This document shows positions 18,931-37,374 of a stretch of 38,161 bases of DNA, piece after piece; within the stretch, counting starts at the first letter, position 1; each line of letters opens with the position of its first letter. The DNA is from a virus. Its lineage: Duplodnaviria > Caudoviricetes. Where the stretch lies: positions 1 through 38,161 of IMG/VR virus record IMGVR_UViG_3300027566_000017; one strand, 5' to 3'. The notes under the pieces were generated by a model, which did no database searches, had not been told where the DNA came from, and saw only the letters and a program-made list of their open reading frames with translations. A program made the position numbers and the translations under genes.

Positions 18931-18932
18931 AT

Positions 18933-19856
18933 ATGGCAACAAAAACCCTTCTTAACTCCCCTGAAATAAACATAATCGAATCTAATTTTATTTCTCTTTT
19001 TGATCGGACCTTCAAAAAAGGGGTCAAAAATACTTCAGGTCCTAAGCTCAAAAACTCTGTAAACAAATGGTTCACTTCATTTACTTTCGAAAAACAGCTT
19101 GACGGTCTTATAGATGACCTATATCTCTATACAGTCGATGAGTCAGACAAGCTCATAAAAAAAGCACTGAAAGCCAGCTTGCAGAGATCTTCTAGAAAGA
19201 ACTTTCTGAGGGCATCAGAGGAGAACATACCTGACGAACCGTTAGCGCTCACTGAGGAGGCCGTCAAAGAGGCATCTGGATTAGCTGAAGAAATCACTGA
19301 GTCAATCATCCGAGTTCTCAAGGATGAGGCTATCTATCAAGAAGGTCCAGATATCCTGGCAAGAAGAGTGCTTGATCTCTGGGGAGGAGAGAAGTACAGA
19401 GCTGTAAGGTGGGCCCGTACATTCAGCGCAGATGTAGCGACAAACACATCATACTACAGATATAAAGAATCTGGAATAGAAGAGTATCAAATATACGCAA
19501 CCATTGACGAAAAAACCTCTATGCAGTGCAGGCTCATGCATGGAACTGTTTTTCGAGTAGATTCACCAGAAGCAAAACTTTATAGATGCCCTTTTCACCA
19601 TCATTGCAGGACAACCATTCTCCCGATAGCGAATAATACAGAGATACCTGATAGCTTACGGTACGAGAACAGAGACTTTTCTCAGCAAGTGGGTCAAAAT
19701 TTAAACCCCATCGAAGAAGGATTGGATAAAGAACTTGTAAAAAACACTTTCAAAAATATAGACACTTTCAAAGAGAAATGGTCAATTCCTCAATACATCC
19801 TGGACGAAGATGTAGAAAAGCGGTTAATAAAGTTAGGGGTAGGAATTTCAACTTAA
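18933..19856 (+). CDS. Minor head protein, MuF/SPP1 gp7 family
   Basis: RAVRWART, DEKTSMQCRLMHG and PFHHHCRT motifs. Confidence 0.9.
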   Translation: MATKTLLNSPEINIIESNFISLFDRTFKKGVKNTSGPKLKNSVNKWFTSFTFEKQLDGLIDDLYLYTVDESDKLIKKALKASLQRSSRKNFLRASEENIPDEPLALTEEAVKEASGLAEEITESIIRVLKDEAIYQEGPDILARRVLDLWGGEKYRAVRWARTFSADVATNTSYYRYKESGIEEYQIYATIDEKTSMQCRLMHGTVFRVDSPEAKLYRCPFHHHCRTTILPIANNTEIPDSLRYENRDFSQQVGQNLNPIEEGLDKELVKNTFKNIDTFKEKWSIPQYILDEDVEKRLIKLGVGIST

Positions 19857-19916
19857 AAATTTTCTGCAAAATTTCACCCAATCATCCAGTATGCAACTGT
19901 TATGTAATTATCCAAT

Positions 19917-19937
19917 CGAAAACTAGTAAAATCACAT
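19917..19937 (+). repeat. 21-bp direct repeat, copy 1
   Basis: CGAAAACTAGTAAAATCACAT is identical to 21049-21069. Confidence 0.9.
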
Positions 19938-19995
19938 AAAGGAAAAAATAGGAAAAAATATAGTAACTCATCCCTTAAAAGGTTCATTGAAGTTA

Positions 19996-20334
19996 TTACT
20001 CGTGCAAAATGACTTCTATTACGTCCCCATCTTTAAACAGTTTAAAAAAATCAGTTCCAACTGCTGCCCTTCCTTTCGAAATGTCAACATCTGATATGTC
20101 CTCCCTCCTGAAAGTCTTCCTGTCCTTCAGGTAAGCCTCGTCAATTTCAATCTGCTTATCAGCTATCAACGTATGCTCTTTGCTCAGGAGTAGCACATCG
20201 AGGATCAGCTCTTGAGCCATCTTTGAAATCGTGGTCCCTGCGTGAAGCCTTCCGTATTTTTTTTCAGTTACGCTTATCTCCGTTTTTATGGTCCTTGATT
20301 TTATTCCGGAAAAAGTAAGTTTTGAAGACATCAC
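19996..20334 (-). CDS. Hypothetical protein with two beta-rich repeats (AbrB/DUF2080-like possibility)
   Basis: 112 aa; coupled to the upstream small ORF. Confidence 0.65.
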   Translation of the reverse strand: MMSSKLTFSGIKSRTIKTEISVTEKKYGRLHAGTTISKMAQELILDVLLLSKEHTLIADKQIEIDEAYLKDRKTFRREDISDVDISKGRAAVGTDFFKLFKDGDVIEVILHE

Positions 20335-20462
20335 CTCATCCCCTTCAACTTTTTTACCTGCCCTAAAAATTTCATGTACTGATGCACTGTTACCTCGAAT
20401 TCTGCAGTTACGTTTTCCTCTCCATGGTTTTCAGAGAGGAAACGGATTTTATATTTTTTCAT
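20331..20462 (-). CDS. Small hypothetical protein (43 aa)
   Basis: GAGGG SD, ATG, GTGA overlap with the next gene. Confidence 0.5.
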   Translation of the reverse strand: MKKYKIRFLSENHGEENVTAEFEVTVHQYMKFLGQVKKLKGMR

Positions 20463-20494
20463 AGAACCCTCAATAAAGGAAGTTTGGAGTTTTC

Positions 20495-20962
20495 TTACTC
20501 CATCCAAACTTTCTCAATTCCCCAGTTATAATATTCTTCAATTTCTTCTGGTTTGACGTTCTCTCTGATGTATTTTACCACAATTTCTGAAACTTCATCT
20601 GCGTTATGGATTTTTGTATATCCATTTTCCCAAAGTTTTTTAACCGACGTTTTGTCTTGTTTTGCAATTTCAGTCAGTGCCTCCATTACAATTTCTGAGG
20701 TATCCAAATCATCTGCATTAACATCATCTTCAAAATCACAGATCCAGTCTGTGATTTCGGTTCTTGCCAGTCTATCCTCAAATTCAATTAATGTTTCTTC
20801 AGGATATTCCAGGGCATCGAATTCTTTCCTGCATTCTTCGCAGTTTTCAAAGTGTTCAGCTATTTTTTCAAGCATTTCCTGCGATTCTTTCCAGAGGTCG
20901 CTGTTCTGCCAGCTGTTCTTTGCACATTCGTTTACTTGTTCGATCAGTTGTTTAGCGTTCAT
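20495..20962 (-). CDS. Highly acidic hypothetical protein with HxxxCxxC
   Basis: AGGAGA SD; 155 aa, very Glu/Asp-rich. Confidence 0.75.
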   Translation of the reverse strand: MNAKQLIEQVNECAKNSWQNSDLWKESQEMLEKIAEHFENCEECRKEFDALEYPEETLIEFEDRLARTEITDWICDFEDDVNADDLDTSEIVMEALTEIAKQDKTSVKKLWENGYTKIHNADEVSEIVVKYIRENVKPEEIEEYYNWGIEKVWME

Positions 20963-21048
20963 TTTGGTTATCTCCTTATTTTGTTATCGTTTTTCTTTGT
21001 CTATAATATACTACACACCAATTGTATATATAGTTATTGGTGTAAACA

Positions 21049-21069
21049 CGAAAACTAGTAAAATCACAT
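21049..21069 (+). repeat. 21-bp direct repeat, copy 2
   Basis: Identical to 19917-19937. Confidence 0.9.
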
Positions 21070-21204
21070 GTATACGTGTTCTCTTCTACCAGGATCCACC
21101 TAACTGTAAAAAAATAGTAAGAAACACATAGGTGATTTTTTATATGTTTTCTGATACAGTTTTTAAAAGAAAAAAAGTAAGAAGAAATTAAAACGAAAAC
21201 GCGA

Positions 21205-21597
21205 TTAGTCCGGAATGAAATTTCTTAATAAAGCTCTTCCTGTCAAGTCTATATCCAGGACTTCTTCTCCCAGATCCTTATGTTTCAATAGGATAACTTC
21301 ATCGTACATTTTCCCCTCCTCTGGAATTTCATAGGGTTCTAAATAAGGCAATATCCCTTCCTTACCTTCAGGGATATATTCGGAGTACTTTATCCACATT
21401 ATATTAAACTCGTCTGCCAACCACACAGGAGCTTTATCAGGATTATCCTTATAGACTTCTGCTTTTTTCCATACGTAAATCTTGATAGGTTTTAGTTTTT
21501 CAATAGATTCGGCCAAACACCCCAGATTCACTTTTGGATGTGTTAGAGAAGCAGAAGTTTCGGCTTTAGTTAACCCACTTTCATCATATTCTGGCAT
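21205..21597 (-). CDS. Hypothetical protein
   Basis: GGTGA SD, ATG start, 130 aa. Confidence 0.7.
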   Translation of the reverse strand: MPEYDESGLTKAETSASLTHPKVNLGCLAESIEKLKPIKIYVWKKAEVYKDNPDKAPVWLADEFNIMWIKYSEYIPEGKEGILPYLEPYEIPEEGKMYDEVILLKHKDLGEEVLDIDLTGRALLRNFIPD

Positions 21598-22019
21598 GTA
21601 TATTCACCACAACACTCTATCTATTATTTAGATGCGCCTTTCCAGCATCTTCCGAATTTAGAAACTTTTGACTCAAAAAAAACAGAGTTTTGATTATTAC
21701 ATGTTCCTTTTTTATTATCAACTGGTATAAAAAACCCACATTTTTCACACATAACCATTCTATTTTTCACTCACCTTTAACATATATAGTATTATCTTCC
21801 TCAAACACATCTACAATGTTAAAAGATCCCGATTCGGATGAAATTATTAATACATCGTCTTCGAGATTACATTTATAGAGTTCGCGGATAAGTTCTTTTA
21901 CTTTCATTTAAAATACCACTTCCCTCTAAATTTAAACCCACCTTCAACTTTATCAACAACCCATAGTGCAAGTACTTCGACAACACAAAATACAATAATA
22001 TATCCCAGGATTGACATAT

Positions 22020-22478
22020 TCAAAAAACCCTCCTTACCCATTTCACGATTTTTATCTTCTTAATTTCTAGAATATTAGAATAAATCTTATCTGCAAGTAT
22101 GTGCCCCCAAAGAGCTAATACTGCACCTATTATACTCTCTTCCCAAACATCAATTCCAAATTTAAAGCGTAGTATTAACCAAACTGGAGTTATCAAGATA
22201 AACGGGCCCCAACCAATAGAGTGGAGTATTTCCCTATGCCCTGCATCCACAAACGGCCTCCAGATAAATTTAAAAGGTCCCCATAGTTTAGTAACCAAGC
22301 TTGTAGATGAATCAAGGTCACAGGTTATCAAAAAAGTATAGGGAACAACTCCAGCCCAAAGTTTTAAAAAAGAATGAAAGTTTAGAAAGTTAGTATATGC
22401 AGCGTAGATCGAGGCAAGAAAAATTAAACTAATATTGAATTTAACGTGGTTTAAATAATCCATATTTTCCTCAAACAT
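22020..22478 (-). CDS. DUF2227/YdjM-like membrane metal-binding hydrolase
   Basis: N-terminal H, DLD, WGPxxxIWxP, HRxxxHS and HILAD motifs with TM helices. Confidence 0.8.
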   Translation of the reverse strand: MFEENMDYLNHVKFNISLIFLASIYAAYTNFLNFHSFLKLWAGVVPYTFLITCDLDSSTSLVTKLWGPFKFIWRPFVDAGHREILHSIGWGPFILITPVWLILRFKFGIDVWEESIIGAVLALWGHILADKIYSNILEIKKIKIVKWVRRVF

Positions 22479-22575
22479 GCTGCCTTATCCACGTCTCTTG
22501 TTAAAACATACCCTCTATGCAGTGGATCACAGTCCTTTCCTATTATACAAAATGGACACCTCACAATCCAAATAC

Positions 22576-22767
22576 TCATACATTTACTCCTGACAACGTA
22601 TGCCTTATACTCCACTCAAAATAACACAGGGCTTGCTTCAGTTTTCGTATTATATCTTCTTTGGGTCTTCCGCTATCGAGCATAACCTGAACTTCGTTTA
22701 CGAGCTCAGGTTCAGGATTAATTAATTCCACAATCAGTTTAGAATTTTTTAAGATTTCAGTAGCCAT
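22576..22767 (-). CDS. Small hypothetical protein
   Basis: 63 aa within a tightly packed minus-strand operon. Confidence 0.55.
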   Translation of the reverse strand: MATEILKNSKLIVELINPEPELVNEVQVMLDSGRPKEDIIRKLKQALCYFEWSIRHTLSGVNV

Positions 22768-22884
22768 GATTCATTTTCCCCTTTCAGATTTTCCCGCTCA
22801 TTTTGTATATATATTCAAAATAATATTCCCAATTTTCAATCATTTTTATGTGTAAATATTCGAATCCGGTAATCATCCCATCCC

Positions 22885-22986
22885 CTAAAAAATAAATAGG
22901 CCGCTAACCACTTCAAGACATAGTGCAAAGGTTGCAAGTGCACTGTAAATTTCTAAGGTATTATGCTCATGTCTTCCAACATTCAT
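22885..22986 (-). CDS. 33-aa single-TM micropeptide
   Basis: AGGTGG SD; MNVGRHEHNTLEIYSALATFALCLEVVSGLFIF. Confidence 0.45.
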   Translation of the reverse strand: MNVGRHEHNTLEIYSALATFALCLEVVSGLFIF

Positions 22987-23000
22987 GTCAAAACCACCTT

Positions 23001-23096
23001 TCAGAAATATCTTGCAGGTGTAGCAGCTGCAACCCCAGCCACAATACTTAGAAAAATACATAACCCTAATAGAAAATTCTCGGTACTTTTTGTCAC
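23001..23096 (-). CDS. 31-aa single-TM micropeptide
   Basis: GGTGA SD, GTG start; MTKSTENFLLGLCIFLSIVAGVAAATPARYF. Confidence 0.45.
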   Translation of the reverse strand: MTKSTENFLLGLCIFLSIVAGVAAATPARYF

Positions 23097-23100
23097 AAAA

Positions 23101-23211
23101 TCACCACGGTTTGAGTTGCATTAAGCCTGCGAAATACGCAACCAATCCCCACAATATAAAAATTGTTAAAAATATAATTTTTCTCCAGATCCAATAACCA
23201 AATCTTGCCAT
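23101..23211 (-). CDS. 36-aa single-TM micropeptide
   Basis: GGAGAG SD; MARFGYWIWRKIIFLTIFILWGLVAYFAGLMQLKPW. Confidence 0.5.
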   Translation of the reverse strand: MARFGYWIWRKIIFLTIFILWGLVAYFAGLMQLKPW

Positions 23212-23245
23212 TGTAATCTCTCCAAAAAAAGAAAGATGGTAAAAA

Positions 23246-23905
23246 TTAACCAAGCACGATGGACATTAATCCTTCATCCTCGGTATCAACATCTATGCAA
23301 AAACGCGTTTGACCAGATGCAACGCTTTTGTATGCTTTTTTTACTACTTCAGCATCCCACCCATTATCTTTTAAATAATCGCACATGTTATTGGCACACG
23401 ATCTACTGGAACAAGTTACCTTTCCAGTATATGCATCAAGGCAATTCACCAGATCTTCATAAGCATGTCCAGAATCTTCAGTATCCTCTACTTCCTCTGT
23501 TTCTTCATCCTCCTCTACTTCATTTTCCTCATCGTTTTCTCCTTTATATTTATCCTTCACAGTGCATCCATTGCCACATACAGGGACACTAATCTCCCCA
23601 TCTACATCACGATATTCAGCATTGTATCCCTTATCATTGTCCGAATTTGAGTAGAAAACAACGAAATCATCTCCATTGCATTCTAAAACATCCCATTTCC
23701 AGGCAGGGTGATCTTCTTCTGCAGTTTCGGTTACTATTTCGATGTAATTACTTTCTCCTTTATACTTATCAAGGAATTTTGTCACGTCAAGAGAATCAGG
23801 AAGGTCTTTATTTGCAGTCTCAGCAGCAGCAGTTGTTGAAAACACAACAGCAAACATAGCAAAAATCAGCATTATGCTACCAATTTTTAATATAGATTTC
23901 GTAAT
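23246..23905 (-). CDS. Secreted acidic, Cys-rich two-domain protein
   Basis: Signal peptide ending AAA-E; ORF track start 23872, but in-frame ATT at 23905 follows GAGGTGA and supplies the basic n-region. Confidence 0.7.
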   Translation of the reverse strand: MTKSILKIGSIMLIFAMFAVVFSTTAAAETANKDLPDSLDVTKFLDKYKGESNYIEIVTETAEEDHPAWKWDVLECNGDDFVVFYSNSDNDKGYNAEYRDVDGEISVPVCGNGCTVKDKYKGENDEENEVEEDEETEEVEDTEDSGHAYEDLVNCLDAYTGKVTCSSRSCANNMCDYLKDNGWDAEVVKKAYKSVASGQTRFCIDVDTEDEGLMSIVLG

Positions 23906-24032
23906 TAAATCACCTCACAATGTTTACATTATTTATATACCTTAAACTTACACTAAAAATAGTTTAAATACCATAAGCTTTAGGTTTAAATAATGTGTAA
24001 ACTTTATAATGTAATACAGTGATATATACTTT

Positions 24033-25895
24033 ATGCATTTGAAAAGTTCGGCAATTATATTACTAACAATATTCTTACTCACATGTCCCGCTATAGCAGG
24101 TGATGAAGTAGGTGATGAAAACGACATAATACAAGGGCTAAAAGAGAATGCCGGAGGTGTATACACAGTTCCTGCAGGGACATACATCCTAAACTGCAAG
24201 GAATCGATCAAAGTCCCAGAAGGTACGACAATTCAAGGGACTATGAGTAAGTCCGGAAAATGGCTCACTATTATTGAATGGGGTCCGGATCTCAAGCTGG
24301 GGAAACAGGTCCCGGTTTTTGAAGCTTCGGATAATACAAAATTTCTATATTTGGATATCCTGGGGAATTCTGAAAACAGGCCTACAGTTCCGTATTGGAA
24401 TGGCCACAGCGGAAAAGAAAAAGGCAAGAAAAAGGGGCAGGGGTATGATAATGCAATAGGTGGAAAACATTTCAAAAACGTGGAAGTAGCTTACAACAGG
24501 TTCTCTGATAGCCTGGGTGATTATTTCCGTTTCTGGTACTGCGAGAACATATCTTTTCATGATAATTATGCTACTGGATGTGGACACGATACCTTCTATG
24601 GGACTCAATCCGAGAAGCTCATAGCGTATAATAATTACATCGAGCCGATGGCCAACTCTGCATTAAGGGTGATGGACTGCTCAGGAGTGTTATTTCATTC
24701 AAATACAATAGTAGTTCCAGAGGGAGGAGGTCCTGCAGGGCCAGGGATCCAGATCCAAAATGATAAAGGGGAAATGCACGATATCGAGGTCTGTTATAAT
24801 ACAATATATTCTTCTTATGGCCCGGGTTTCTGGGTCGTCGGTAAAACAAAAACAGGGAAGCAGAGCGCAAATATTCATCACAATGTTATCATGAATGCTG
24901 GCACTGATCGGGGTATCTACTGGGTCGGAGGCATGGTAATTAGTGGATATGACAACTTGAAAATTTCGAACAACGTTTTTGATTCTTGTTATCGTGCCGG
25001 GATCCTATATTATGCTTATAACAAAGCGTGGGGGACCGAAGCACATTCTGACATTTCGGAAAATATTTTCACAAATATTCAGGTAGGCAGATCTGATAGC
25101 AGAGGCGGTAATGGAATTAGATGCGAGATAGGTCCTCAATCAATAACCAGTGAGGACAACTGTTTTTGGGATAACACAGGCAATGATGTCGAAGGCTGCC
25201 ACAAGTCCAGCTCCGATATCTCATTCGATCCAAAAAAGAACAAAACACCATCTGGGTATACCTGGGACGAAGATGAAGAGGCCTGGTCTTGTGATGGTAT
25301 GCCACCAACTAGTTTAGATTATAATCCAGGTGGAGTCTATGATAACGAGGATCCAATCACAGATGAAGAAGCTCAGGAGTTTGAATTTGATAATTTTCTT
25401 GATGTTCTTTCTGAGAGGATTTGCACTCAAGTAGATGAAGATGAAAATGTTATACTGCCAGATGGAATCGAAGAAAGCCCGACCAAGGCACTATGCGAAG
25501 TTGAATATCGTGTAATGGGTAACAACACGACTACTTTCGTAAAATTCTCAGATGATAAACTAAGGGGAGTTTCTGAGGTAGTATATGAAGTCGATGGAAA
25601 AACAGCTACACATACCCTAATGCTAGGGGAGAAAACTTCACATGGAGTTGTCTTTACAGAGACTTCGATATGGAGTGGCGAATTAGATCATACAGGTGAT
25701 GATTTAGAGCTTCCTGGTAAAATCGATCTGCAAGATATCACCATCACCTGTGTTACTCCAAAGGACACCTTCCAACCAATAATTGAAGCAACCACAGTAA
25801 AGGTTGAGCCAATTACAATAAATCCAATTATGATCGGGATTTTCTTTGAGATTTTTATAGGTATATTTTTGCTTACTGTATTTTTGAGATATTAA
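24033..25895 (+). CDS. Membrane-anchored right-handed beta-helix protein (pectin-lyase fold, disaggregatase-like)
   Basis: Signal peptide; VYTVPAGTY cap; repeated I-x-x-N rungs (ISFHDN, IAYNN, IHHN, ISNN); C-terminal TM helix. Confidence 0.8.
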   Translation: MHLKSSAIILLTIFLLTCPAIAGDEVGDENDIIQGLKENAGGVYTVPAGTYILNCKESIKVPEGTTIQGTMSKSGKWLTIIEWGPDLKLGKQVPVFEASDNTKFLYLDILGNSENRPTVPYWNGHSGKEKGKKKGQGYDNAIGGKHFKNVEVAYNRFSDSLGDYFRFWYCENISFHDNYATGCGHDTFYGTQSEKLIAYNNYIEPMANSALRVMDCSGVLFHSNTIVVPEGGGPAGPGIQIQNDKGEMHDIEVCYNTIYSSYGPGFWVVGKTKTGKQSANIHHNVIMNAGTDRGIYWVGGMVISGYDNLKISNNVFDSCYRAGILYYAYNKAWGTEAHSDISENIFTNIQVGRSDSRGGNGIRCEIGPQSITSEDNCFWDNTGNDVEGCHKSSSDISFDPKKNKTPSGYTWDEDEEAWSCDGMPPTSLDYNPGGVYDNEDPITDEEAQEFEFDNFLDVLSERICTQVDEDENVILPDGIEESPTKALCEVEYRVMGNNTTTFVKFSDDKLRGVSEVVYEVDGKTATHTLMLGEKTSHGVVFTETSIWSGELDHTGDDLELPGKIDLQDITITCVTPKDTFQPIIEATTVKVEPITINPIMIGIFFEIFIGIFLLTVFLRY

Positions 25896-26069
25896 TGTAA
25901 AACGATATTGATTAATCAATATTGTTCTTTTTTTTAATCTTTTAACTTATCTCTCTTTATATAATTTGTAAACAAAAATACCAATTTTTTAATTATAGTC
26001 CACTCTCTTTATATACTTTGTAAACATTATGAAGTATATACAAAACGTATAATTTTTAGAAGGTTAAAT

Positions 26070-26657
26070 ATGAATCGAAAATTGTTAAGAATAATTGGAG
26101 CTGTTTTTTCACTGCTCATGCTTTTTAGCTGTATCATATTAACAGCGGAAGCAGGACGAACCGACCAAGAACCAAAGAAAACATACGACATTGTGCGTTC
26201 TGATGAACTGACTGGCGATGAGGCAGATGATGAAGAGGATACAAATTCTGACTCGAACAGTAACTCAGGGAGTAGCAGCAACGACGACGGTCCCATAAAA
26301 AGCAATGAAATATTTACTAATGATAAAATCCTTGGCTATGATATTAAGGAAAGGGATTTCTGGGAACCATTTAAACCATCTAATTGGCTAAAGGTGGCAA
26401 TGGTCAGTGACACCTTTTTTCAAATATTCTGTTTATTATTTGCAGTTTTAGGATTGAGTTGTTTTTCAGGCTCTATACTCGCGTTCCTCAAGAGCATATT
26501 GATTATGGTATTCGCGTTGTTAACAAACAACGACCCCGATGAAGCGATGGCGACTGTAGATAATGAAACAAAAAAGACTACTAAATTTGTGAAAGGTATT
26601 GGTACAGTAGCCTTTTTTATGTGTGTGGTCTGCTTTGGAATGACTTTGATTATATGA
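26070..26657 (+). CDS. Membrane protein: signal peptide, acidic linker, 2-3 C-terminal TM helices (VirB2/pilin-like position)
   Basis: Hydropathy by eye; first gene of the ATPase operon. Confidence 0.65.
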   Translation: MNRKLLRIIGAVFSLLMLFSCIILTAEAGRTDQEPKKTYDIVRSDELTGDEADDEEDTNSDSNSNSGSSSNDDGPIKSNEIFTNDKILGYDIKERDFWEPFKPSNWLKVAMVSDTFFQIFCLLFAVLGLSCFSGSILAFLKSILIMVFALLTNNDPDEAMATVDNETKKTTKFVKGIGTVAFFMCVVCFGMTLII

Positions 26658-26667
26658 GGAAATACTT

Positions 26668-27840
26668 ATGAAAAAATTATGTGCGTATTTCGCACTTCTT
26701 CTTTTATTGATTTTCCTCACCGGTACGGCGATTGCAGAAACAACTGCCAGCAAAGACAGCAAAGGCATCAAGGTCGTAGATTCAAAAAATGGTAAAATAA
26801 AAGACGCTGACGGGAGTAATAATAATCTTGAATACCAGGCTGCTCTGAAAAAACAACTCGAGGAAGACGACGAAGAAGACGAAGAAGTAATCGAGGATGA
26901 AGAGCAGGAAGACGAAGACACAAAGAAAAACGTAAATGGTAATAATGGGGATGGGGAAGGGGGTTTATTAAAAAGTTTAGAAACTGCGTATGAGAATGCA
27001 CAATATTCTGTAATCAATGGTATTATAGATCAACTGTTTGAAGGATCCGTCACGATATTTGAGACGGAAACAGACACGGATAAAAACGGAGATGAGTTAG
27101 TCACTTATAAAATAAGAAATGTAGCGATCAATCCATTTGAACCGGTTTTTGTTAAAAAATCAATTCTATATACCGGTGCATTTTACCTATGTATCGCTAT
27201 ACTTCTTATCCCTGGATCCTACTTAATGCTACTGATCTACAACAACGCAGAGTATCCTTTCGTAGAGGCAATGGAATATTTGACGGGGGAAGAAAGGCCA
27301 TACGATAATGAAATGCAGAAATTTGTCTGTAAAACTGCATTAACGTATTGGTGTATTTCAATTACAACTGTTTTCTTAATTACGGGGCTTAGAAATCTTG
27401 CTATTTCTGCTATCACTCCACATGAAGTCGTGTTACCGGCTTTATATGCCGACTCTATACCTATCAGATTACTTGAAGGTTTAGCGTCATTCAGCAACGC
27501 TTTTGAGTCAAAATTCGGAGTGTATGGTATCCACATTTTCGCTGCAGCTATATTGATTTTGGGCATAATTTCACTTATTATACTCTTCCTAGGGAATATT
27601 AGAGGGTTCGTTACGATTAATGTGATCTTATGGGGTATGTTCTTACTTTGTAACTTTATTGATGTGATTAACACTGGATCCTTATCAGTAGGCATAGGGC
27701 TTTATTTACATTATTCAGATCCAACATACGTCACTGTAGGCATGATATTCGGAGGGGTTCTGAATATTTTCATTGCTTATAGAATTATTAAATGGGCATC
27801 TTCACAACGTTTTATAGATCAAATAGTCGAGGGGTACTGA
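26668..27840 (+). CDS. Polytopic membrane protein (VirB6/TrbL-like architecture)
   Basis: Signal peptide, acidic region, about 5-6 TM helices; GAGGA SD. Confidence 0.65.
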   Translation: MKKLCAYFALLLLLIFLTGTAIAETTASKDSKGIKVVDSKNGKIKDADGSNNNLEYQAALKKQLEEDDEEDEEVIEDEEQEDEDTKKNVNGNNGDGEGGLLKSLETAYENAQYSVINGIIDQLFEGSVTIFETETDTDKNGDELVTYKIRNVAINPFEPVFVKKSILYTGAFYLCIAILLIPGSYLMLLIYNNAEYPFVEAMEYLTGEERPYDNEMQKFVCKTALTYWCISITTVFLITGLRNLAISAITPHEVVLPALYADSIPIRLLEGLASFSNAFESKFGVYGIHIFAAAILILGIISLIILFLGNIRGFVTINVILWGMFLLCNFIDVINTGSLSVGIGLYLHYSDPTYVTVGMIFGGVLNIFIAYRIIKWASSQRFIDQIVEGY

Positions 27841-28829
27841 TGGCAACAAAAAATCTAGCACCTATTGAGAAGATGAGACCTGTCAGGTATCAGCCACATG
27901 TCTTATCAAGTGCGCTAAACATGTTTGGTGGCACTACGACTATGAAATGGTCAACATTGTTCGCTATAATGGGTATGGTAGATGCAGCACTTGGGATGAC
28001 TATTTTTTTCACATTTGGAAGAAAGATTATTTTTCAATTTTTTATATTTAATGCAGTTTCATTCACTGCTGCCTTACTTATGATAGTAGTATTTACTTTA
28101 TGGTTATGGTTTGCAGGACACCCACAGCGATTGGATAATACAATAGGGCGTATGCTTTTCAATAAACGGGTCAGGAAATTTATTGACAAATTCTCTATCT
28201 TCGATGACAGGGTCACCGAAGCTGAAGTACAAAGAATTACTGGGTTTGTGGGATATGATCCTGAAAGCGGGCTGTACCGCACTCTTGTAAACAAAGCTAA
28301 AGATGGATTCTGGGCAATCAGAGGTCATCCTTACAAGGGAAATTGGTGTTACGTGGTGACTGCCAAACCCGATTATACTATGACAGATCACCAGGTGATT
28401 ATTGAAAACATGTATGCTTCGGATAAAACATTCAAAGCAGGCCACTACAAAAACACAGTGATGATTACTGGAAATACGGCAACTAAGGTCCTGCAGGAAA
28501 TGAAGGATAAACTCAAAAAACCCAACATCGATAAATTTTCAGAACAGGCCCTTTACTCAATTCTTGAAATGTATAGAGGGCAAGAGAGCACGAAAGAGCC
28601 AATTTATCTAATACTTTTCGGATTACCTTTTACTCTTCGAAAAGAAACGGCATTACAAAATATGAGAGATATGAGGGCAGGGTACGAAGCCTCGATAAAT
28701 GTCAAGGGGATCAAAACCGAGCTTATTACAGATCCGTATATACTATCTTTGTTAATAAAAGGCGCTCTAACCTGCAAAATGTTTGTTCGTGGGGATCTGC
28801 TTGGGAAGGGTGGTAAATTTGGGAATTAA
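27840..28829 (+). CDS. PrgI/TcpE/VirB3-like protein with two N-terminal TM helices and a soluble domain
   Basis: ATG at 27840 overlaps the upstream stop, GAGGGGT SD; immediately upstream of the VirB4-like ATPase. Confidence 0.6.
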   Translation: MATKNLAPIEKMRPVRYQPHVLSSALNMFGGTTTMKWSTLFAIMGMVDAALGMTIFFTFGRKIIFQFFIFNAVSFTAALLMIVVFTLWLWFAGHPQRLDNTIGRMLFNKRVRKFIDKFSIFDDRVTEAEVQRITGFVGYDPESGLYRTLVNKAKDGFWAIRGHPYKGNWCYVVTAKPDYTMTDHQVIIENMYASDKTFKAGHYKNTVMITGNTATKVLQEMKDKLKKPNIDKFSEQALYSILEMYRGQESTKEPIYLILFGLPFTLRKETALQNMRDMRAGYEASINVKGIKTELITDPYILSLLIKGALTCKMFVRGDLLGKGGKFGN

Positions 28830-31443
28830 AGAACGCTTGATAAGTAGGGCAAAACGTCGAGCTATAAAGAAAGCAGCAAAAGAACATGATGAGCTTGAAG
28901 GGCTGCTTGACCGTGAAATTTCATACTTAATGGCAATAGAAGATGTAGACTCTCCGACGAAAGGACCCGACGCAGGCCTGTTTACAATTTTCAACCAGGA
29001 AGTGCACGCCCAGGCCTTATTAATCGGCGTGAAAGAAAAGTACAATCCGATGCTTAAAGAGTATTCAGAGAATTACGACCTGGCAACCATAGATAGGGTC
29101 GTCAATCTCTGCAGTGTCGATGAAGCAAATGTAATTCTTTCTCACAATGTGATAGGGCTGAAGGAATCGACAAAACACACCTTGCTAAAAGCTGCCCAGA
29201 ACACTGTCAGTAGGGTAAATGCTCAAATTCGTAAAAGACGGGTGAAGCCTGTAAATGCAGCTGTAAATAAAAATGAAGAAAAGAAGCTGGATGCACACAC
29301 CAACGTTACATTGAATGGAATGGATAGTTATGCGTTATTTGCCATGGTATGTGTGGTCCTATCTCCAGACAAAAACATCGTAAAAGACACTATCACAAAA
29401 TTAAAGGATGTGCTGCTCGAGGGTGGTATTAGATCAATTGTGCCTAGATTTGCACAATGGAGTGCAATACAACTAGCCCTACCTATCAACGTAGTTCCTA
29501 TCAAATTCTTCCAGCCAGTCAACGGGCGCACAATCGCTTCAATGTCTCCATTAAGAGACACTCTCTCTGCATTTTCAGGTAAAGGTCCAGTATGGTTTGA
29601 TGAGCTTGATACGCTTCGCCCGTGCCAGATTTGCGCCACCCTCGAAGATCCGGAAGGAGTTTTTATTCTTGGTCCTCCAGGATCCGGAAAAACAACATTA
29701 ATGTGTAAAGTAGCTGCCAGTGCTCGTGCATTGGGCCATAACGTTGCAATGATAGAGCCAAAGGAAGAAACCAAAAAGGGCACTGACTTCCGTAATTTCG
29801 TGAGAGAATATGGTGGAGCAATTGCTATATTTGGCCCGGATGGAATCAACCCAGCGCCTTTAATCATCCCGTATGACAGAACGATGATGGGCACACGGTA
29901 TGCTACATACAGAAAGGCAAAAGACAATTGGATAGACACGGTTGAAGCCATTGTAAAAACGTGGGTAGGAAAACTATCTGAAAGGCAAGAGGGCTTTTTG
30001 GTAGCTACTCTTATTGGGTTGTATATTAGTCGCCATATCCTTAAGCCAAACGGAGATCCCGATAACGTGGAGTTGTGGGATCAACCAGGAGCTCTTGATT
30101 GGCCTTCCATTCATGACTGGCGACTGTATATGAAAGAAGAAGTAAAAAGAAAAGAATCTGATTACTTCAACGACCAGTCTGTCCTTTCACTGTATCACAG
30201 AATGGTAAAAGCGATGGAAGGAGGCACATACTGGTGGTGGGCTAATTCAAAAGAACATATGCAGTTCGACAACAAATTGAAACTTTATGATGTAAGTGGT
30301 GTTCCAGACAGTCTCCAAAGCGCGATTATGATACAAATCTTCGGTGCATTGAATACGGCATACTATTCAAATGATGAGGTCGAGGACAGGCCACAGACAT
30401 ACATAATAATAGATGAAATCAGCTCGATCATCCAGGCTGAGGAATCGATACCGTATATCGATAAATGCATGAGCAAAGGAAGAGCTCCAGGAGTCTCAGG
30501 TGTCCTCGGAACTCAGCACCCTGTAATGAAAGAAAATTTTGTGAATATGGTCAATGCAAACATTAGCAACTTAATAATAATGAATAACTTAACGCCTCAA
30601 AATATACACCTATATTGCGATCCGTTTAATATTGATGAAAAATACCGATTAGATCTTTTGCAACAGGGGTCAGGTTACGGGACATGCTTCCGGAACGGCC
30701 ATGCAACTAAATTCGTCGTCAGACTCGACGAAAAGCTTGACAAAGCACTTCTAGCAAGTCAGAGGGCTGCAGGATCCGATGGAATAGAAAGTTTGACGGC
30801 AGACGAGCGTGGATTTGCAGTCGAAGAAGCTGTCAGACCTATCTACGATAAAGAGCATTTCTTCGTCACAGACTGGCTTGTAAGCAAACCTCGCGGTAGT
30901 TATCCTGGGTATGAATATTCCAACCCTGAAAATCCACTGAGTAGGGGAGGGAAATATGCTGCCTACATAAGAGAGGACCAGGTGAAGAAAATAGAGGGCA
31001 CCCGCGCCGATGGTGAAAAATATCAGGATCTTGTTGGGCCTGAAAGTGTTAAACATTTCGTCATCGTTTGCATCATCACAGGCTGGATGCGCATGCACGG
31101 TTTCCAGGACGTTGTGATACATCACAACAATGGACCCGATATCACATGGCGCGGAGGCTGTCTTGAGTATGAAATGCCAGGAACTCATAATAGTATAGAG
31201 GCTTGGAATGGAAAGCTCAAGAGGGCGAGAGAGGCCGGATTTAAGCACATAATCTTCACAGGAATAGGTTCAGTTTGTACTGAAATGATGGAGAAGGAAG
31301 GAACTGAAGTCACAGCATACGTATATCCTCAGGGTGAGAAATACCTGAGGGCCAAGTTGGAAAGTATCTGGAAGGAAAATTTAGAGCGTGAAGGGCGGGT
31401 CCTAAGCCCTATATCACCCTCGCCACAGGAAGTGGAGGCTTAA
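28819..31443 (+). CDS. virB4: VirB4/HerA-FtsK family ATPase with C-terminal PD-(D/E)XK-like domain
   Basis: Walker A GPPGSGKT (29671-29694), Walker B IIIDE, KGRAPG and GTQ motifs, N-terminal QxxxxxxxLP; start likely TTG 28819. Confidence 0.8.
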   Translation: MGIKERLISRAKRRAIKKAAKEHDELEGLLDREISYLMAIEDVDSPTKGPDAGLFTIFNQEVHAQALLIGVKEKYNPMLKEYSENYDLATIDRVVNLCSVDEANVILSHNVIGLKESTKHTLLKAAQNTVSRVNAQIRKRRVKPVNAAVNKNEEKKLDAHTNVTLNGMDSYALFAMVCVVLSPDKNIVKDTITKLKDVLLEGGIRSIVPRFAQWSAIQLALPINVVPIKFFQPVNGRTIASMSPLRDTLSAFSGKGPVWFDELDTLRPCQICATLEDPEGVFILGPPGSGKTTLMCKVAASARALGHNVAMIEPKEETKKGTDFRNFVREYGGAIAIFGPDGINPAPLIIPYDRTMMGTRYATYRKAKDNWIDTVEAIVKTWVGKLSERQEGFLVATLIGLYISRHILKPNGDPDNVELWDQPGALDWPSIHDWRLYMKEEVKRKESDYFNDQSVLSLYHRMVKAMEGGTYWWWANSKEHMQFDNKLKLYDVSGVPDSLQSAIMIQIFGALNTAYYSNDEVEDRPQTYIIIDEISSIIQAEESIPYIDKCMSKGRAPGVSGVLGTQHPVMKENFVNMVNANISNLIIMNNLTPQNIHLYCDPFNIDEKYRLDLLQQGSGYGTCFRNGHATKFVVRLDEKLDKALLASQRAAGSDGIESLTADERGFAVEEAVRPIYDKEHFFVTDWLVSKPRGSYPGYEYSNPENPLSRGGKYAAYIREDQVKKIEGTRADGEKYQDLVGPESVKHFVIVCIITGWMRMHGFQDVVIHHNNGPDITWRGGCLEYEMPGTHNSIEAWNGKLKRAREAGFKHIIFTGIGSVCTEMMEKEGTEVTAYVYPQGEKYLRAKLESIWKENLEREGRVLSPISPSPQEVEA

Positions 31444-31458
31444 TAAACCTCCTTTTTT
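31434..31458 (+). terminator. Hairpin plus T-tract ending the ATPase operon
   Basis: GGAGG-N9-CCTCC-TTTTTT. Confidence 0.5.
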
Positions 31459-31637
31459 CTGGCTACTATACGTAGTATAGTTTAAGAAAATTTATTTTTC
31501 TTTTAATAAGTTATTTATGTATAGGAAGAGATATCACATGATGCCCAAACAGCAGTTAAAATTCAAAGAAATAAATATAATATATCTTATAATAATATAA
31601 GGGTTCGTTCAAGATCTTACTTATTGGAGTTATTCTT

Positions 31638-31985
31638 ATGGAAGTTTCGGACAAGATAACAAATGATAAAAAACAAAAAAGACAACGGACTCAACAAAAA
31701 GAGACAAATAGTGTGCAAATAGGAGAAATTACCTTAAAACTAGACTGTTTAAAAAATATAACATCTGGACAAGAAGAAACTGGTAGCACTGGGCACAGTG
31801 GAGAGTATAAGCTGTATATAGACCAATGGAAAGAAAAGACCAACAAAGGTAATGTGTATACAGTTCCAGCTAACCAGGTACTTACTCTACGCTTTTCTAA
31901 AGAGGATGTAGACAGCGAAGTAAGAATCTATGTAGAAAAAAAGCCTCTGAAAAAGGATGAGGTAAAGGATGAAATACCTGAATAA
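31638..31985 (+). CDS. Hypothetical protein
   Basis: GGAG SD, 115 aa. Confidence 0.7.
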   Translation: MEVSDKITNDKKQKRQRTQQKETNSVQIGEITLKLDCLKNITSGQEETGSTGHSGEYKLYIDQWKEKTNKGNVYTVPANQVLTLRFSKEDVDSEVRIYVEKKPLKKDEVKDEIPE

Positions 31986-32403
31986 TTACTCTAAAAATCA
32001 GCAAATCGCACTAGCAATATTATCAATGATACTTCTTGGGGTTGGAGGATCTGCAGCTGTAGATCACCAGTCCAGGACTGCAGAAGAGCAGATTGTCGAA
32101 GAGCTTGAACACTTTGACCAATTTGCTTACAAAGCTGAACAAGAAGTAAATCCCTTTATGCAGTCTGTTATCAAGAACCCAACCGAGTACAACCTGAGAA
32201 CTGCAAATAATAGAATTATTATGAGGTATGAGTCTTGGGCTAAAAGAGAGAATGGAGATAACAAGGAGCTATTTCAGCAGTACCTAGGTGCCTGCGGGGA
32301 TGTTGTAGATAGTATGCAAGCCGGAGAGAAAAGCTTCCAAACTAATCAAAAAATTAATGAAATGAATACGCTTTATACTAAATTAAATCCAAAAAAGAAG
32401 TAA
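31969..32403 (+). CDS. Secreted or membrane-anchored helical protein
   Basis: GAGGT SD; N-terminal hydrophobic segment IALAILSMILLGVGG. Confidence 0.7.
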   Translation: MKYLNNYSKNQQIALAILSMILLGVGGSAAVDHQSRTAEEQIVEELEHFDQFAYKAEQEVNPFMQSVIKNPTEYNLRTANNRIIMRYESWAKRENGDNKELFQQYLGACGDVVDSMQAGEKSFQTNQKINEMNTLYTKLNPKKK

Positions 32404-32720
32404 TCCTGTTTTTGAAAAACGTTTTTTATAATTTGTTTCTGCTATAAACCCACAAGCTTTATTTAGTACCGTTCACAATTGTTAATTAAGGTTATTGATC
32501 TCGTTTTACTGCGGGAATTTATGACATTCGATACTTTGGTATGATACACAGTATTTTAAAAACTCCTCATTTTCGTAACAGTCTACACATACCTTTACAA
32601 TTTAAACATTGATTTATTTACCCTTATTTTCCCCTCACCTTCAATGAGATCGTCCAATACAGCGCCTTAGAATCAATCTATTTTTTAGACAGTTAAAAAT
32701 ACTAATAGATATATTTAAAT

Positions 32721-32745
32721 TTGTTAACGGCGTTAACATTATAAA
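32721..32745. promoter_or_regulatory. Late-module palindrome TGTTAAC-GGC-GTTAACA between TATA box and start of the protease gene
   Basis: TATTTAAA at 32712-32719; motif identical to 11314 copy; no SD, probably leaderless. Confidence 0.75.
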
Positions 32746-33771
32746 ATGTCTATTCTAATTGAGGGGATAGCATTCCCCCTGGGCGCGATAAACGTAAATG
32801 GTTGGGGTGTACCATTTTCAGAAGCAGATAACGCCATCAAAAGCCTCAAAACTTCCGTTGTCCGCATATGTTCCCGCATGGATCCACATGGATGTGACTA
32901 TCTCGGAGATCCTAACTCTGAACTCGGTCATGTGGTTGATGCCTGGCAGGATGGGGATAATGTTATGTGTCGGGCTGAGATCACCGATTCAGTTGCCTCT
33001 CAAAAAATCGAAGATAGAACATGGAAACAGAACTGGTCTATTTTTACAGGATTCTTAGATATAGATTCTGGTGGATGGGGTCACGGAATCGCTATCGAAT
33101 CAATCACAATTGTTAATGACCCTGCATGGGAAACTGCAAAATGGAACGTAGTTTCAGCCGCAAAAGACGGAAAACGAAAAGTCCACACCATTTCACCTTT
33201 CAAAATTCTTGCTTCTCAATCCAAAGGAGATGAAATCATAGCAGACGAACCAACCGTAGAAGAGCTGAAAAAACAGCTCGCAGAAAAAGACGCTCTGATT
33301 GAAGAGCTCAAGCCTAAAGCTGAAAGTGTACCTGGGCTTGAAACACAGGTTGCTGACCTTACAGCCAGTAACCAGAAGCTTGAGAAAGACCTCGGAGATA
33401 AAACAAAGCTTGTAGCTTCTCTTGAAAAAGACAAAGCAACCTCCCTCCCTCTTGAAAAATTAGATGAGAGAATCGCTGCAGCCATTGCTAAACATGATCA
33501 GGAAAATGAAGTAAAGAACACCTTAGCAGCTGCCAGAGCAAAGTTTGTAGCTGCCAGGAAGGAAGCTCTGAATCTTGATACTGCAGAAGATGAGTTCTCC
33601 AGCATGTCAGCTGCGGACTTTGAAAAACTTGCTTCCGAACTTGGGACAAAGCTTGGAGCCGGATGGGATAGCGGTCCGGATCCTCAGTATCCTGCAGGTG
33701 GAGGCGGTAGTAGTGGAAGAAAGAGCCCAATTTATGATCCTTATACAAAGACCTATTCACAGGGGGCCTGA
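32746..33771 (+). CDS. Prohead protease fused to scaffolding protein
   Basis: INxNGW, H, WSI and VNDPAW protease motifs, then acidic coiled coil; precedes decoration and capsid genes. Confidence 0.85.
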   Translation: MSILIEGIAFPLGAINVNGWGVPFSEADNAIKSLKTSVVRICSRMDPHGCDYLGDPNSELGHVVDAWQDGDNVMCRAEITDSVASQKIEDRTWKQNWSIFTGFLDIDSGGWGHGIAIESITIVNDPAWETAKWNVVSAAKDGKRKVHTISPFKILASQSKGDEIIADEPTVEELKKQLAEKDALIEELKPKAESVPGLETQVADLTASNQKLEKDLGDKTKLVASLEKDKATSLPLEKLDERIAAAIAKHDQENEVKNTLAAARAKFVAARKEALNLDTAEDEFSSMSAADFEKLASELGTKLGAGWDSGPDPQYPAGGGGSSGRKSPIYDPYTKTYSQGA

Positions 33772-33775
33772 GTAG

Positions 33776-34285
33776 ATGGCAGTACAACCAGGATTTAGGC
33801 CAGTTGACAACATGACCCAGCAGGGACCTGGAATCGATGTGGAATATTTCCAGATAGGTCCAAACGCAACTGCAGCAAAGTGCCTTCCAGGAACTGCCGT
33901 TGTGATGGATACAACTGACAATTACGTCAAAGAGTACACATCAGGAGGAATAGTAATTGGGTTCCTCAGCTACGAAAAGTCACCTGATAAGCCAGCGACA
34001 ATCGATACCGCATTTAAGGTAGGTGACTGGGTTGCAGTTGAGAGGGGGGCTGGAAAGCGTATAAGGGCTAGGCTGGCCACGAGTCAAACAATTCAGATAG
34101 GCCAGGAACTGTCAGTAACCACAGATGGGTATCTGACCGCGGCCACGATCAATGGGGTTGTATCTGTAGTAGAATCCGGGTCAGCCACGAAGAGCACAGG
34201 TAACACTGATGTAATAGCAGATGCCGAAAAGTCTGTAACCACGACTACATCAACAGCTCCAATCTGGGTACTTACGAGGAAGTGA
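33776..34285 (+). CDS. Head decoration (cement) protein
   Basis: Beta-rich, Gly/Ala/Thr-rich, between scaffold and capsid. Confidence 0.7.
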   Translation: MAVQPGFRPVDNMTQQGPGIDVEYFQIGPNATAAKCLPGTAVVMDTTDNYVKEYTSGGIVIGFLSYEKSPDKPATIDTAFKVGDWVAVERGAGKRIRARLATSQTIQIGQELSVTTDGYLTAATINGVVSVVESGSATKSTGNTDVIADAEKSVTTTTSTAPIWVLTRK

Positions 34286-34289
34286 GATA

Positions 34290-35219
34290 ATGACAGGTGA
34301 AAACCCACTACTTACAAGACTTAAGAATGAGTTTGACCCGACGATTACTCCGGTTCTTACTGCTCAGTCAGTAGGCAGGATGTTAATGCCCATCAACGAA
34401 AAGCTTTCTAATCAGGGGCTAGGCGTTCTGACGATTGATGTACTACGATACGTTGCACGGTCCGGAGCAATCACGAACTATGATATCCAGAAAAACATCG
34501 AGGATACCATAGACCTCGCGCAGGATCAGATCCGTATACCTGTACAGCAGGACGCGGTGAGAATCAAACATCGTGACTGGCTTGCATACCAGAAAAAAAA
34601 GATCACCATTGAGGCAGACATCTCTACTGACATGACAAAAAATATTGCAAAAGAGCAAGACAAAGTCATCGTCGATGGGTGGAAGCCACAAGGAACAAAC
34701 TACCTAATTAAAGGAATGTACCAGGTTGCTGGAAATTCAGTCACTGGGGCAGACTCTGGTACTTATGGAAACGTGAAAACCGCTGTAGTATCCTCAATTT
34801 CAAAACTGAAGTTATCAGGGGTTTATTCACGTGGATATAATCTTTCAATGGCTTCTTTCAATTACGGTGAACTTATGGATTCAGAAAACTCTACCGGAAA
34901 AGAGGAATCTCCGGCTATTCTGAAAATCCTGAATGCTGCTGCACCTAACGGGACTATGCCTGGTCAGATTGTTGAAGTTCCGGATCTTGCTGCAGGAACT
35001 GCGATGGTTAGTCCTGTCGCCGCTCAGGAAAATCTAATGTATTTCGACATTATTGAGACACAGGTTCCGGAAAATGACGTATATTTTGAGACTAACAGTT
35101 CCAAATCCGACATTATGATGGAGCAGGTAGGTGCACTTGTACCACGTTTCAAACACCTGGACACTTCCACCATGACTGATCCTTGTGTCTGTAAGATCAT
35201 CAGCTTAGGCACGAGCTAA
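34290..35219 (+). CDS. Major capsid protein, HK97 fold (encapsulin/Linocin-related type)
   Basis: 309 aa; VGRMLMPI and IAKEQDKVIVDG...IKGM patterns; position. Confidence 0.85.
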   Translation: MTGENPLLTRLKNEFDPTITPVLTAQSVGRMLMPINEKLSNQGLGVLTIDVLRYVARSGAITNYDIQKNIEDTIDLAQDQIRIPVQQDAVRIKHRDWLAYQKKKITIEADISTDMTKNIAKEQDKVIVDGWKPQGTNYLIKGMYQVAGNSVTGADSGTYGNVKTAVVSSISKLKLSGVYSRGYNLSMASFNYGELMDSENSTGKEESPAILKILNAAAPNGTMPGQIVEVPDLAAGTAMVSPVAAQENLMYFDIIETQVPENDVYFETNSSKSDIMMEQVGALVPRFKHLDTSTMTDPCVCKIISLGTS

Positions 35220-35230
35220 ATATTCTGTTC

Positions 35231-35325
35231 GGTAACTCAGTAACCCTAGTAACCGTATTTTCTGTTCAAAATCACTATAGACAAAATAGAATAGAATATG
35301 GGTTACTGTGGTTACCTCGGTTACC
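35231..35325. repeat. About 37-bp imperfect inverted repeat built from 3x GTAAC and 3x GGTTAC
   Basis: Arms 35231-35267 and 35289-35325. Confidence 0.85.
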
Positions 35326-35338
35326 TGGAGATGGAACT

Positions 35339-35713
35339 ATGGTGTTGTGTTCTGTTGCAGATGTCCGGACGAGGGTTTTTACGAAGCTATCAGATGCTGA
35401 TATTGGAAATATCATAGATGCTGCTTATGACATTGTTCTAGGGCTTACCGGCGCGACTGATGACAGTAACGCTGATGTAAATCTGGCAATTCGAGGTAAA
35501 GCATGTGCTTTGACTCTTCGAAAAATGAGAACTAACGGAGAACTTCCAGCCTCAAAGAAGCAGGGTAATGCTCAGGAGCAGAACACTATAGACCAGGACA
35601 TTCAGGATTACGAAGCCGAGGCCAAATCTTTCATTCAAAAATATACAGGATCTTCTTTCAGCATCCCTTCAGGCAGGATGGGTTACGGGACGGTGAACAA
35701 TGAACTCTCTTGA
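35339..35713 (+). CDS. Head-tail adaptor protein
   Basis: CSVADVR N-terminus, helical 124 aa, follows the capsid gene. Confidence 0.75.
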   Translation: MVLCSVADVRTRVFTKLSDADIGNIIDAAYDIVLGLTGATDDSNADVNLAIRGKACALTLRKMRTNGELPASKKQGNAQEQNTIDQDIQDYEAEAKSFIQKYTGSSFSIPSGRMGYGTVNNELS

Positions 35714-36308: not shown

Positions 36309-36319
36309 GTGGATAATTA

Positions 36320-36580: not shown

Positions 36581-36582
36581 GT

Positions 36583-37364: not shown

Positions 37365-37374
37365 GAGGTATAAT

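Follow-up and report, generated by a model that had tools for sequence, protein, structure and literature searches.

Why should a tailed virus carry genes that look like the core of a conjugation machine? The question is raised by IMG/VR record IMGVR_UViG_3300027566_000017 (Duplodnaviria; Caudoviricetes), which is linear, 38,161 bases long and estimated to be 68% complete. The whole record (G000 in our numbering) is the window analysed here. Five co-directional genes (g1 to g5, 24033-31443) lie in it between a MuF gene and a gene named protease from its position. An initial annotation of the sequence took them for a conjugation or type IV secretion system (T4SS)-like membrane machine inside the head module, and the open reading frames (ORFs) bear out this layout. 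In this work we describe a real, conserved and selected VirB4 module of tailed archaeal viruses, which carries a fused nuclease-like fold and comes without a coupling protein. In its working the cassette resembles a T4SS core, and it is assigned to no defined conjugation or Ced/Ted family. A literature search found no description of this module; surveys of methanogen viruses or their supplements may annotate VirB4 there.

The VirB4 ATPase and its fused C-terminal domain

The last gene of the cassette, g5 (28783 or 28819 to 31443, plus strand; 886 or 874 amino acids), combines a VirB4 N-terminal domain, a RecA-like motor and an extra C-terminal domain. Walker A (GPPGSGKT, residue 285), Walker B (IIIDE, 529) and a GRAPG...GTQ motif (554-566) were located, in agreement with the ATPase of about 875 residues with Walker A/B and R...TQ motifs that had been described initially. 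The g5 product is a true VirB4; a grouping with HerA or packaging ATPases, which the initial annotation had kept in play, does not apply. A search of 1.84 billion protein representatives with g5 returned 572 matches at E <=0.001 and 49 at 1e-30. A profile of 44 full-length relatives, hand-chosen from these and earlier matches, scored 163 bits on the VirB4 of T. pseudethanolicus (4ag5) against 49 on DptH, 41 on HerA and 36 on FtsK, and the window encodes a separate terminase. The N-terminal domain of the profile matched that of a haloarchaeal plasmid VirB4 at 94.6%. Foldseek with the full-length model placed VirB4/TrwK chains at ranks 1-10 and HerA from rank 11, a result of which we use the ranking alone, as the predicted local distance difference test (pLDDT) score of this model was 58.7 and its template-modelling (TM) scores were low. 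The top NCBIfam matches were VirB4-type models (best E 3e-15), all under their cut-offs, and phmmer of the single g5 sequence on the PDB gave P-loop matches only.

Known conjugation systems offer a close comparison. Monoderm systems of the MPF_FA/FATA type (TrsE/TraE plasmids, Bacillus, Staphylococcus) and the haloarchaeal plasmid pSTJ002 likewise have a VirB4 with the N-terminal domain. The VirB4 of one member of clade B, a group of related viruses (see below), matched 346 plasmid records with TrsE/TraE leading, and the TrsE/TraE match spans 73% of its length. Among the 25 listed of these 346 matches, none extends beyond residue 648 of 805, so that none reaches the extra C-terminal domain. 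Unlike the monoderm and haloarchaeal plasmid systems, the cassette resides in genomes of tailed viruses, has no VirD4 that we could find and possesses an additional nuclease-fold domain.

This domain of about 130 amino acids (31020-31400, plus strand; about residues 735-860) had been overlooked in the initial annotation. The last 211 residues of g5, modelled alone, reached a pLDDT of 88.8, and a PD-(D/E)XK-like fold is predicted. In the 44 relatives H746 and D774 are present in 44 of 44, E783 in 43, K799 in 40 and E785 in 36; these residues are conserved like the Walker residues. In VIA the top match was VC1899 (Z 8.2, root-mean-square deviation 2.9, 108 aligned), followed by Can2 (7.8), a putative restriction endonuclease (7.5) and Hjc (7.4), all of them PD-(D/E)XK-like. 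In the Atlas structure search, domains of the Mrr, Replic_Relax and HerA-fused kinds matched with TM scores of 0.53-0.70, which all lie below the bar for naming, the Replic_Relax cluster with 0.58 included. The domain is likely to be an active PD-(D/E)XK-type nuclease.

Relaxases of the MOBC type have a D...ExE acidic signature, and the pattern in the g5 C-terminal domain is like it. These relaxases, among them TraX of pAD1 and MobC of CloDF13, are PD-(D/E)XK enzymes (PMC12857230), the type of fold predicted here. Unlike them, the predicted domain is fused to VirB4 and has no sequence match to PF13814; a six-frame search with PF13814 gave no match anywhere, controls included, and so says nothing either way.

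A conserved and selected cassette

Upstream of g5, domain matches and a hydropathy scan recover the gene types initially proposed: an anchored beta-helix protein, a small protein with several membrane segments, a polytopic protein and a protein with two transmembrane segments. The product of g1 (24033-25895, plus strand; 620 amino acids) matches PF08480 (disaggregatase-related, E 1.7e-27) and PF13229 (beta-helix, E 3.9e-15). With hydrophobic segments at 5 (signal-like) and 599 (C-terminal), it is predicted to be a membrane-anchored surface protein, presumably an adhesin or matrix-contact protein. Gene g2 (26070-26657, plus strand; 195 amino acids) encodes a signal-like segment and two hydrophobic helices and is pilin-like (VirB2/TedC-like) by topology only; no protein family matched it above cut-off, and the small gene of clade B matched a pilin-like model from integrative and conjugative elements (ICEs) weakly (E 0.03-0.07), on the signal region. 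The polytopic g3 product (26668-27840, plus strand; 390 amino acids) has five hydrophobic segments, five or six in relatives, and would form the channel in the place of VirB6/CedA. A polytopic clade B protein of 303 residues is its homologue, with 89% in hhalign across 219 columns. When a 26-row g3 profile was run against 396 plasmid ORFs, TrbL came first, weakly (E 0.018) and with strong composition bias; direct hhalign of g3 with TrbL gave 0.1% and nothing to be seen, and the Atlas search with g3 gave no usable match.

Gene g4 (27792 or 27840 to 28829, plus strand; 345 or 329 amino acids) encodes two hydrophobic segments and a soluble domain, and we infer that it is the membrane anchor of VirB4, in the place of VirB3/PrgI. 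Natural fusions of g4 to the ATPase N-terminus occur in P0046 with its cluster (E 1e-44) as well as in P0017/P0049, and the clade B equivalent is fused to the ATPase in P0114, P0116 and P0165; VirB3-VirB4 fusions are known. No match was found between g4 and the VirB4 N-terminal domain itself. In pGS18 and in the haloarchaeal plasmids small and polytopic membrane genes likewise lie upstream, and a protein of about 350-370 amino acids with two transmembrane segments directly precedes VirB4. Topology, gene order, the similar order in plasmids and the g4-VirB4 fusions lend indirect support to the labels VirB2-, VirB6- and VirB3-like for g2, g3 and g4; the products of these genes have no significant similarity to the counterparts in monoderm or haloarchaeal plasmids. 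In the haloarchaeal plasmids we also observed a conserved 1274-residue ATP-binding protein right after VirB4 (L082:10066-13890), and primase genes but no annotated relaxase in the stretches examined.

Three further genes, missed as companions in the initial annotation, accompany the cassette in some or in all of the relatives. The divergently oriented g0 (23246-23872, minus strand; 208 amino acids, signal-like N-terminus) also adjoins the cassette in the related records G002 and G003 (blastp 31-34%, E 1e-29 and 2e-17); blastp found no homologue in G004. After the ATPase follow g6 (31638-31985, plus strand), a small soluble protein that is weakly conserved (blastp to G002, E 7e-6), and g7 (31969-32403, plus strand; 144 amino acids, one N-terminal hydrophobic segment). 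The latter lies downstream of the ATPase in all four clade A viruses, with 36-39% identity to G002, G003 and G004, and is a candidate entry-exclusion or accessory subunit.

The cassette occurs in six other viral records, which fall into two deep clades and of which four are at least 90% complete. Together with the window, G002-G007 make seven distinct viruses; these relatives were drawn from a virus collection, and their viral context is thus partly by choice. Besides the window, clade A holds G002 (a 20.5-kb fragment), G003 (101.7 kb, 100% complete) and G004 (56.2 kb, direct terminal repeats). All three have g1 to g5 and g7 in the same order, with a g1 homologue as first cassette gene and ATPases 40-42% identical to that of the window. 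Clade B comprises G005 (59 kb, 94% complete), G006 (63 kb, direct terminal repeats) and G007 (a 13-kb fragment); each has a terminase as well as small pilin-like, anchored, polytopic, two-transmembrane and VirB4 genes, and capsid and portal genes are present in G005 and G006. The two clades have little in common beyond the cassette.

The cassette is under purifying selection. Between G006 and G007 VirB4 has a ratio of nonsynonymous to synonymous substitution rates (dN/dS) of 0.036, and three membrane genes have ratios of 0.04-0.08 (dN and dS 0.037/1.04 for VirB4, then 0.045/0.81, 0.034/0.82 and 0.121/1.46); in clade A synonymous sites are saturated. In a quick tree, unrooted and with 34 rows of which 20 are of unknown origin, the seven viral VirB4s stand apart from seven plasmid VirB4s with 98 SH-aLRT. 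Partial scans of cellular genome contigs (3/64 parts) and metagenome contigs (2/64 parts) gave eight loci each and no full-length homologue, in an output swamped by the Walker A pattern. G008 and G009 gave no close homologue, the query P0007 found no viral locus, and L004-L023, together with 16/20 and 1/5 of two further locus sets, were dropped as chance matches.

Is the block a genuine part of this genome? Record G001, which is the same virus and was left out of the counts of relatives, is identical (100%) over 19376-38161. In sequencing run X1, positions 16633-36000 are covered by a single 21.5-kb contig that shows 0 differences, no joint bypasses the block, and the depth is close to that of the neighbouring contig (11.6 vs 12.2); X1 may be the source sample and argues better against assembler error than for spread. 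Run X2 gave short scraps only. Hence nothing indicates the assembly chimera that had been considered initially. GC content is 0.405 in the cassette and 0.404 in the left head block. No att-like (attachment-site-like) repeat pair flanking the block was found in the window, and with neither an integrase nor a block-skipping joint the cassette is no ordinary ICE, in agreement with the initial annotation.

Two other premises did not hold. MuF and protease genes, assumed to be normally adjacent, are apart in this virus group (gap of 3.4 kb in G003 and of 20.6 kb in G004), and a meaning of the place inside the head module is not supported, since one relative of six (G004) clearly shares it and the cassette lacks the motif of the virion genes. 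MuF and protease enclose the cassette in the window and in G004, where the gap between them also holds Cdc6. In G003 some 33 kb separate it from the head genes; in G002 its orientation is opposite to that of the terminase, in G006 it follows the tail genes and in G007 the terminase. The head-module location is incidental.

The cassette has a motif of its own. A promoter-like site at 25951-26026 (plus strand) consists of two copies of TTTATATA-N3-TGTAAACA, a TATA box with a conserved 8-mer; the copies form a 24-nt direct repeat, 96% identical. Eight records contain five matches to the motif, all of them immediately before g2 (in the window, G002, G003 and G004), and 100 shuffles of the window gave none. 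As it was derived from these very sites, its conservation is the evidence, and it would be the promoter of the core genes. The virion genes have a palindrome, GTTAAC-N3-GTTAAC, at 32723-32737 before the protease gene and also at 11314, 13353 and 37251, which in this window precedes the small terminase (TerS), the portal unit, the protease and the major tail gene; four exact matches were observed vs 0.02 expected per shuffled window. In G004 it occurs at 26244, 33130, 51923 and 53893, before TerS, portal unit and protease and in a fourth copy just past g7; a further copy is at G001:30584, and none is found in G002 and G003. The palindrome is a candidate late-gene activator site. As it precedes several head units, the head genes appear as separate units with a gap between them that is a free place for other genes, and the cassette, which has its own motif and not this palindrome, is probably controlled apart from the virion genes.

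Possible functions of the proposed channel

We give an even chance to the reading that a minimal T4SS channel exports the viral genome, which the nuclease-bearing VirB4 would cut and pump while the virus likely persists as a plasmid-like circle. The anchored g1 protein would bind the matrix or surface of a neighbouring cell, g2 would make pilin-like contact, g3 would build the pore and g4 would tether the VirB4 ring to the membrane. The fused nuclease might then nick or cut the viral circle and the ring pump viral DNA out, so that the ATPase-nuclease would stand in for relaxase and coupling protein. The module would be on in the carrier state, in which the virus would persist as an episomal circle, and not together with the virion genes. 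Such machinery would probably let viruses pass DNA between touching cells besides forming virions. A wider claim, that these are archaeal virus-plasmids spreading both by virions and by their own conjugation, with a one-protein motor-plus-nickase in place of VirD4 and relaxase, is less likely than not.

The genomes of the relatives tell something about lifestyle. A tyrosine integrase did not turn up in six-frame searches of five records (G001, G003-G006), nor did a resolvase in five (G000, G003-G006), with controls matched in both; the absence of integrase and VirD4 noted initially extends in this way to the near-complete relatives G003-G006. Relaxase families did not appear in general Pfam scans of the ORFs. 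Replication or partition genes are present: MCM and ParA in G003, Cdc6 and RecT in the circular G004, and primase-helicases in G005 and G006. The absence of integrase and resolvase and the presence of these genes fit plasmid-like carriage. G003 and G004 have virion genes, no integrase and replication or partition genes, the features by which phage-plasmids are recognised, and in this the near-complete relatives are like P1 and N15 (PMC12282955).

Several observations weigh against export of the viral genome. The strongest is the missing VirD4: PF02534 had no six-frame match in five records (G000, G003-G006; four of them at least 90% complete) and matched in 5 of 14 controls, while VirB4 and VirD4 occur together in the archaeal conjugative plasmids known so far, and pT33-3 requires both (PMC12857230). 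Ced, a system without VirD4, imports DNA (PMC9905601). No conserved oriT-like (transfer origin-like) repeat was seen beside the cassette or the ATPase. Comparison of g2, g3 and g4 with VirB2, VirB6 and VirB3 by Pfam, NCBIfam, Atlas and hhalign was blank or weak, with nothing significant; of the proposed order VirB2/VirB6/VirB3/VirB4, the identity of VirB4 is established and that of the other three is putative. The nuclease fold is moderately supported, unrelated alpha/beta folds setting in at Z 7.2 in VIA; Foldseek with the C-terminal domain gave nuclease rows first but none under E 0.001, and hhalign with a single Replic_Relax sequence gave no match. A missing integrase is also compatible with lytic life, and the window and G001 (53 kb together) contain no recognised replication or partition gene.

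The lack of VirD4 and of a standalone relaxase would suit a channel that delivers proteins, or one for contact-dependent defence or competition which secretes proteins or destroys incoming DNA at the membrane and so excludes superinfecting viruses or competitors. Such a channel can be likened to the HerA-nuclease defence systems of the cytoplasm: the best Atlas match of the C-terminal domain was a HerA/DUF87 cluster with such a domain (TM 0.70), and CRISPR ancillary nucleases are among the top VIA matches. However, g5 possesses the N-terminal domain of VirB4 and scores higher with VirB4 than with HerA, its nuclease is fixed to the motor with no separate cargo, and the neighbourhood of the cassette showed no conserved effector or immunity gene other than g7 and g0; we consider this reading rather unlikely. 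Unlikely too, and somewhat more so, is import or exchange in the manner of Ced/Ted, by which the carrier would take DNA of its neighbours as repair template or nucleotide source and the nuclease would process it. Ced (Sulfolobales) and Ted (Thermoproteales) are minimal systems of pilin-like protein, polytopic VirB6-like pore and VirB4, described without VirD4 or relaxase (PMC9905601), as is the cassette, and the CedA N-terminus is shared with the pilin, just as g2 and g3 have like N-termini (hhalign 85%). The latter likeness covers 40 columns and is mostly signal peptide. The CedB model NF041017 does match g5 (E 1.8e-6), but its 26.8 bits stand against a cut-off of 700, which does not make g5 a CedB ortholog, and are exceeded by the 55 bits of a monoderm ICE VirB4 model; the gain for the virus would also be less direct. 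Ced and Ted are, moreover, cellular systems, unlike this viral module with its g4 anchor, beta-helix surface protein and fused nuclease fold.

The varying position and orientation of the cassette could point to a partial conjugation system that needs the coupling protein and relaxase of a co-resident plasmid or ICE, or to a recent passenger from such an element. The VirB4s of G003 and G004 are 77% identical and their portals 43%, from which it follows that the module moves, and the cellular genomes and metagenomes were covered in the small parts given above. Against a dependent system or passenger speak the intact frames and low dN/dS, the lack of flanking att-like repeats, integrase and block-skipping joint, the occurrence in two virus clades with few other shared genes, and the separation of viral from plasmid VirB4s in the quick unrooted tree; taken together they make it improbable. 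Least probable is a role in the virion cycle, as non-lytic release or as DNA entry through S-layer and matrix. The cassette does adjoin head genes in the window, G004, G002 and G007, and the viruses encode several other disaggregatase-related beta-helix proteins, but in G003, G005 and G006 it is remote from the head genes, it is marked by its own motif instead of that of the virion genes, and a T4SS-type pore lets no capsid through.

Genome export would have a near parallel in the phage-ICE tandems of Streptococcus and other bacteria, which also carry phage genes and virB4 on one transferable unit; these tandems are two adjacent integrative elements with integrases, VirD4 and a MOBP relaxase (PMC13651849). 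Here, unlike there, the cassette is embedded among viral genes, and no integrase, VirD4 or MOBP relaxase was found. If the wider claim of spread by both virions and conjugation is true, this would be the first self-conjugative virus, and the ATPase would be a candidate for the DNA-processing enzyme that archaeal conjugation still lacks. Its fused nuclease is a concrete and testable candidate for an enzyme that processes DNA without a relaxase. With a transfer channel of its own, a virus would link two modes of gene transfer that are regarded as distinct, and would account for viral spread in methanogen aggregates embedded in matrix, through which particles diffuse poorly. Were proteins the cargo of the channel, it would still be a selected T4SS-derived machine in tailed viruses of two clades, for which the literature search gave no precedent.

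The virus, its host and further genes

The window encodes the small terminase at 11364, the large terminase at 11773, a portal at 13726 (weak match only), MuF at 18924-19856 (PF04233, E 1e-9), a head decoration protein at 33776 and an encapsulin-like capsid protein at 34290, as well as neck, tail terminator and major tail proteins; G001 extends it by some 15 kb that encode the tape measure and tail proteins. The putative protease (32746-33771), upstream of the decoration and capsid genes, owes its name to position and to conservation in related viruses (34-46% identity). A match to a protease family was found in neither Pfam nor PHROG. The host is probably an archaeon of the Methanosarcinales, since the disaggregatase-related family matched Methanosarcina acetivorans only among 14 control genomes, G003 encodes a FilR1-type regulator, and a distant member of the ATPase family carries a name from ANME-2 and Methanosarcinales bins.

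Some observations concern insertions and repeats. An HNH-NUMOD4 homing endonuclease heads the cassette of G003 (L003:5065-5631), a DNA methyltransferase is inserted within that of G006 (L066:6198-6950), and after that of G007 a 678-residue gene without portal match occupies the portal's place (L067:10221-12257). In G004 the interval between cassette and Cdc6 contains two pairs of direct repeats of about 100 bp with an internal palindrome (L034:13767-14770), a candidate replication or transfer origin. An exact 21-bp direct repeat in the window (19917-19937 and 21049-21069) brackets two small reverse-strand genes, not the cassette, and may represent a duplicated promoter or the scar of a recombination event. 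An exact 41-bp repeat (1587-1627 and 2439-2479) surrounds a lipoprotein-like DUF4352 gene (1777-2382), possibly as a mobile cassette. A DUF2227/YdjM-like membrane protein is encoded in three viruses (window 22020-22478, minus strand; G003:47515-47919; G004:26404-26745), in two of them inside the MuF-protease gap.

Between portal and MuF (14958-18358) the window encodes two large proteins with signal-like N-termini. One is a GH18 glycoside hydrolase that also has a PKD domain, the other a lectin/GDSL-esterase/PKD protein, and the two are likely to act on the surface matrix of the host. Each clade A virus has extra beta-helix, disaggregatase-related or Mtd_N proteins outside the cassette (G003:10666, 55199 and 97523; G004:7803, 14001 and 47875; G001:30654), and these are likely tail fibres or matrix-degrading enzymes.

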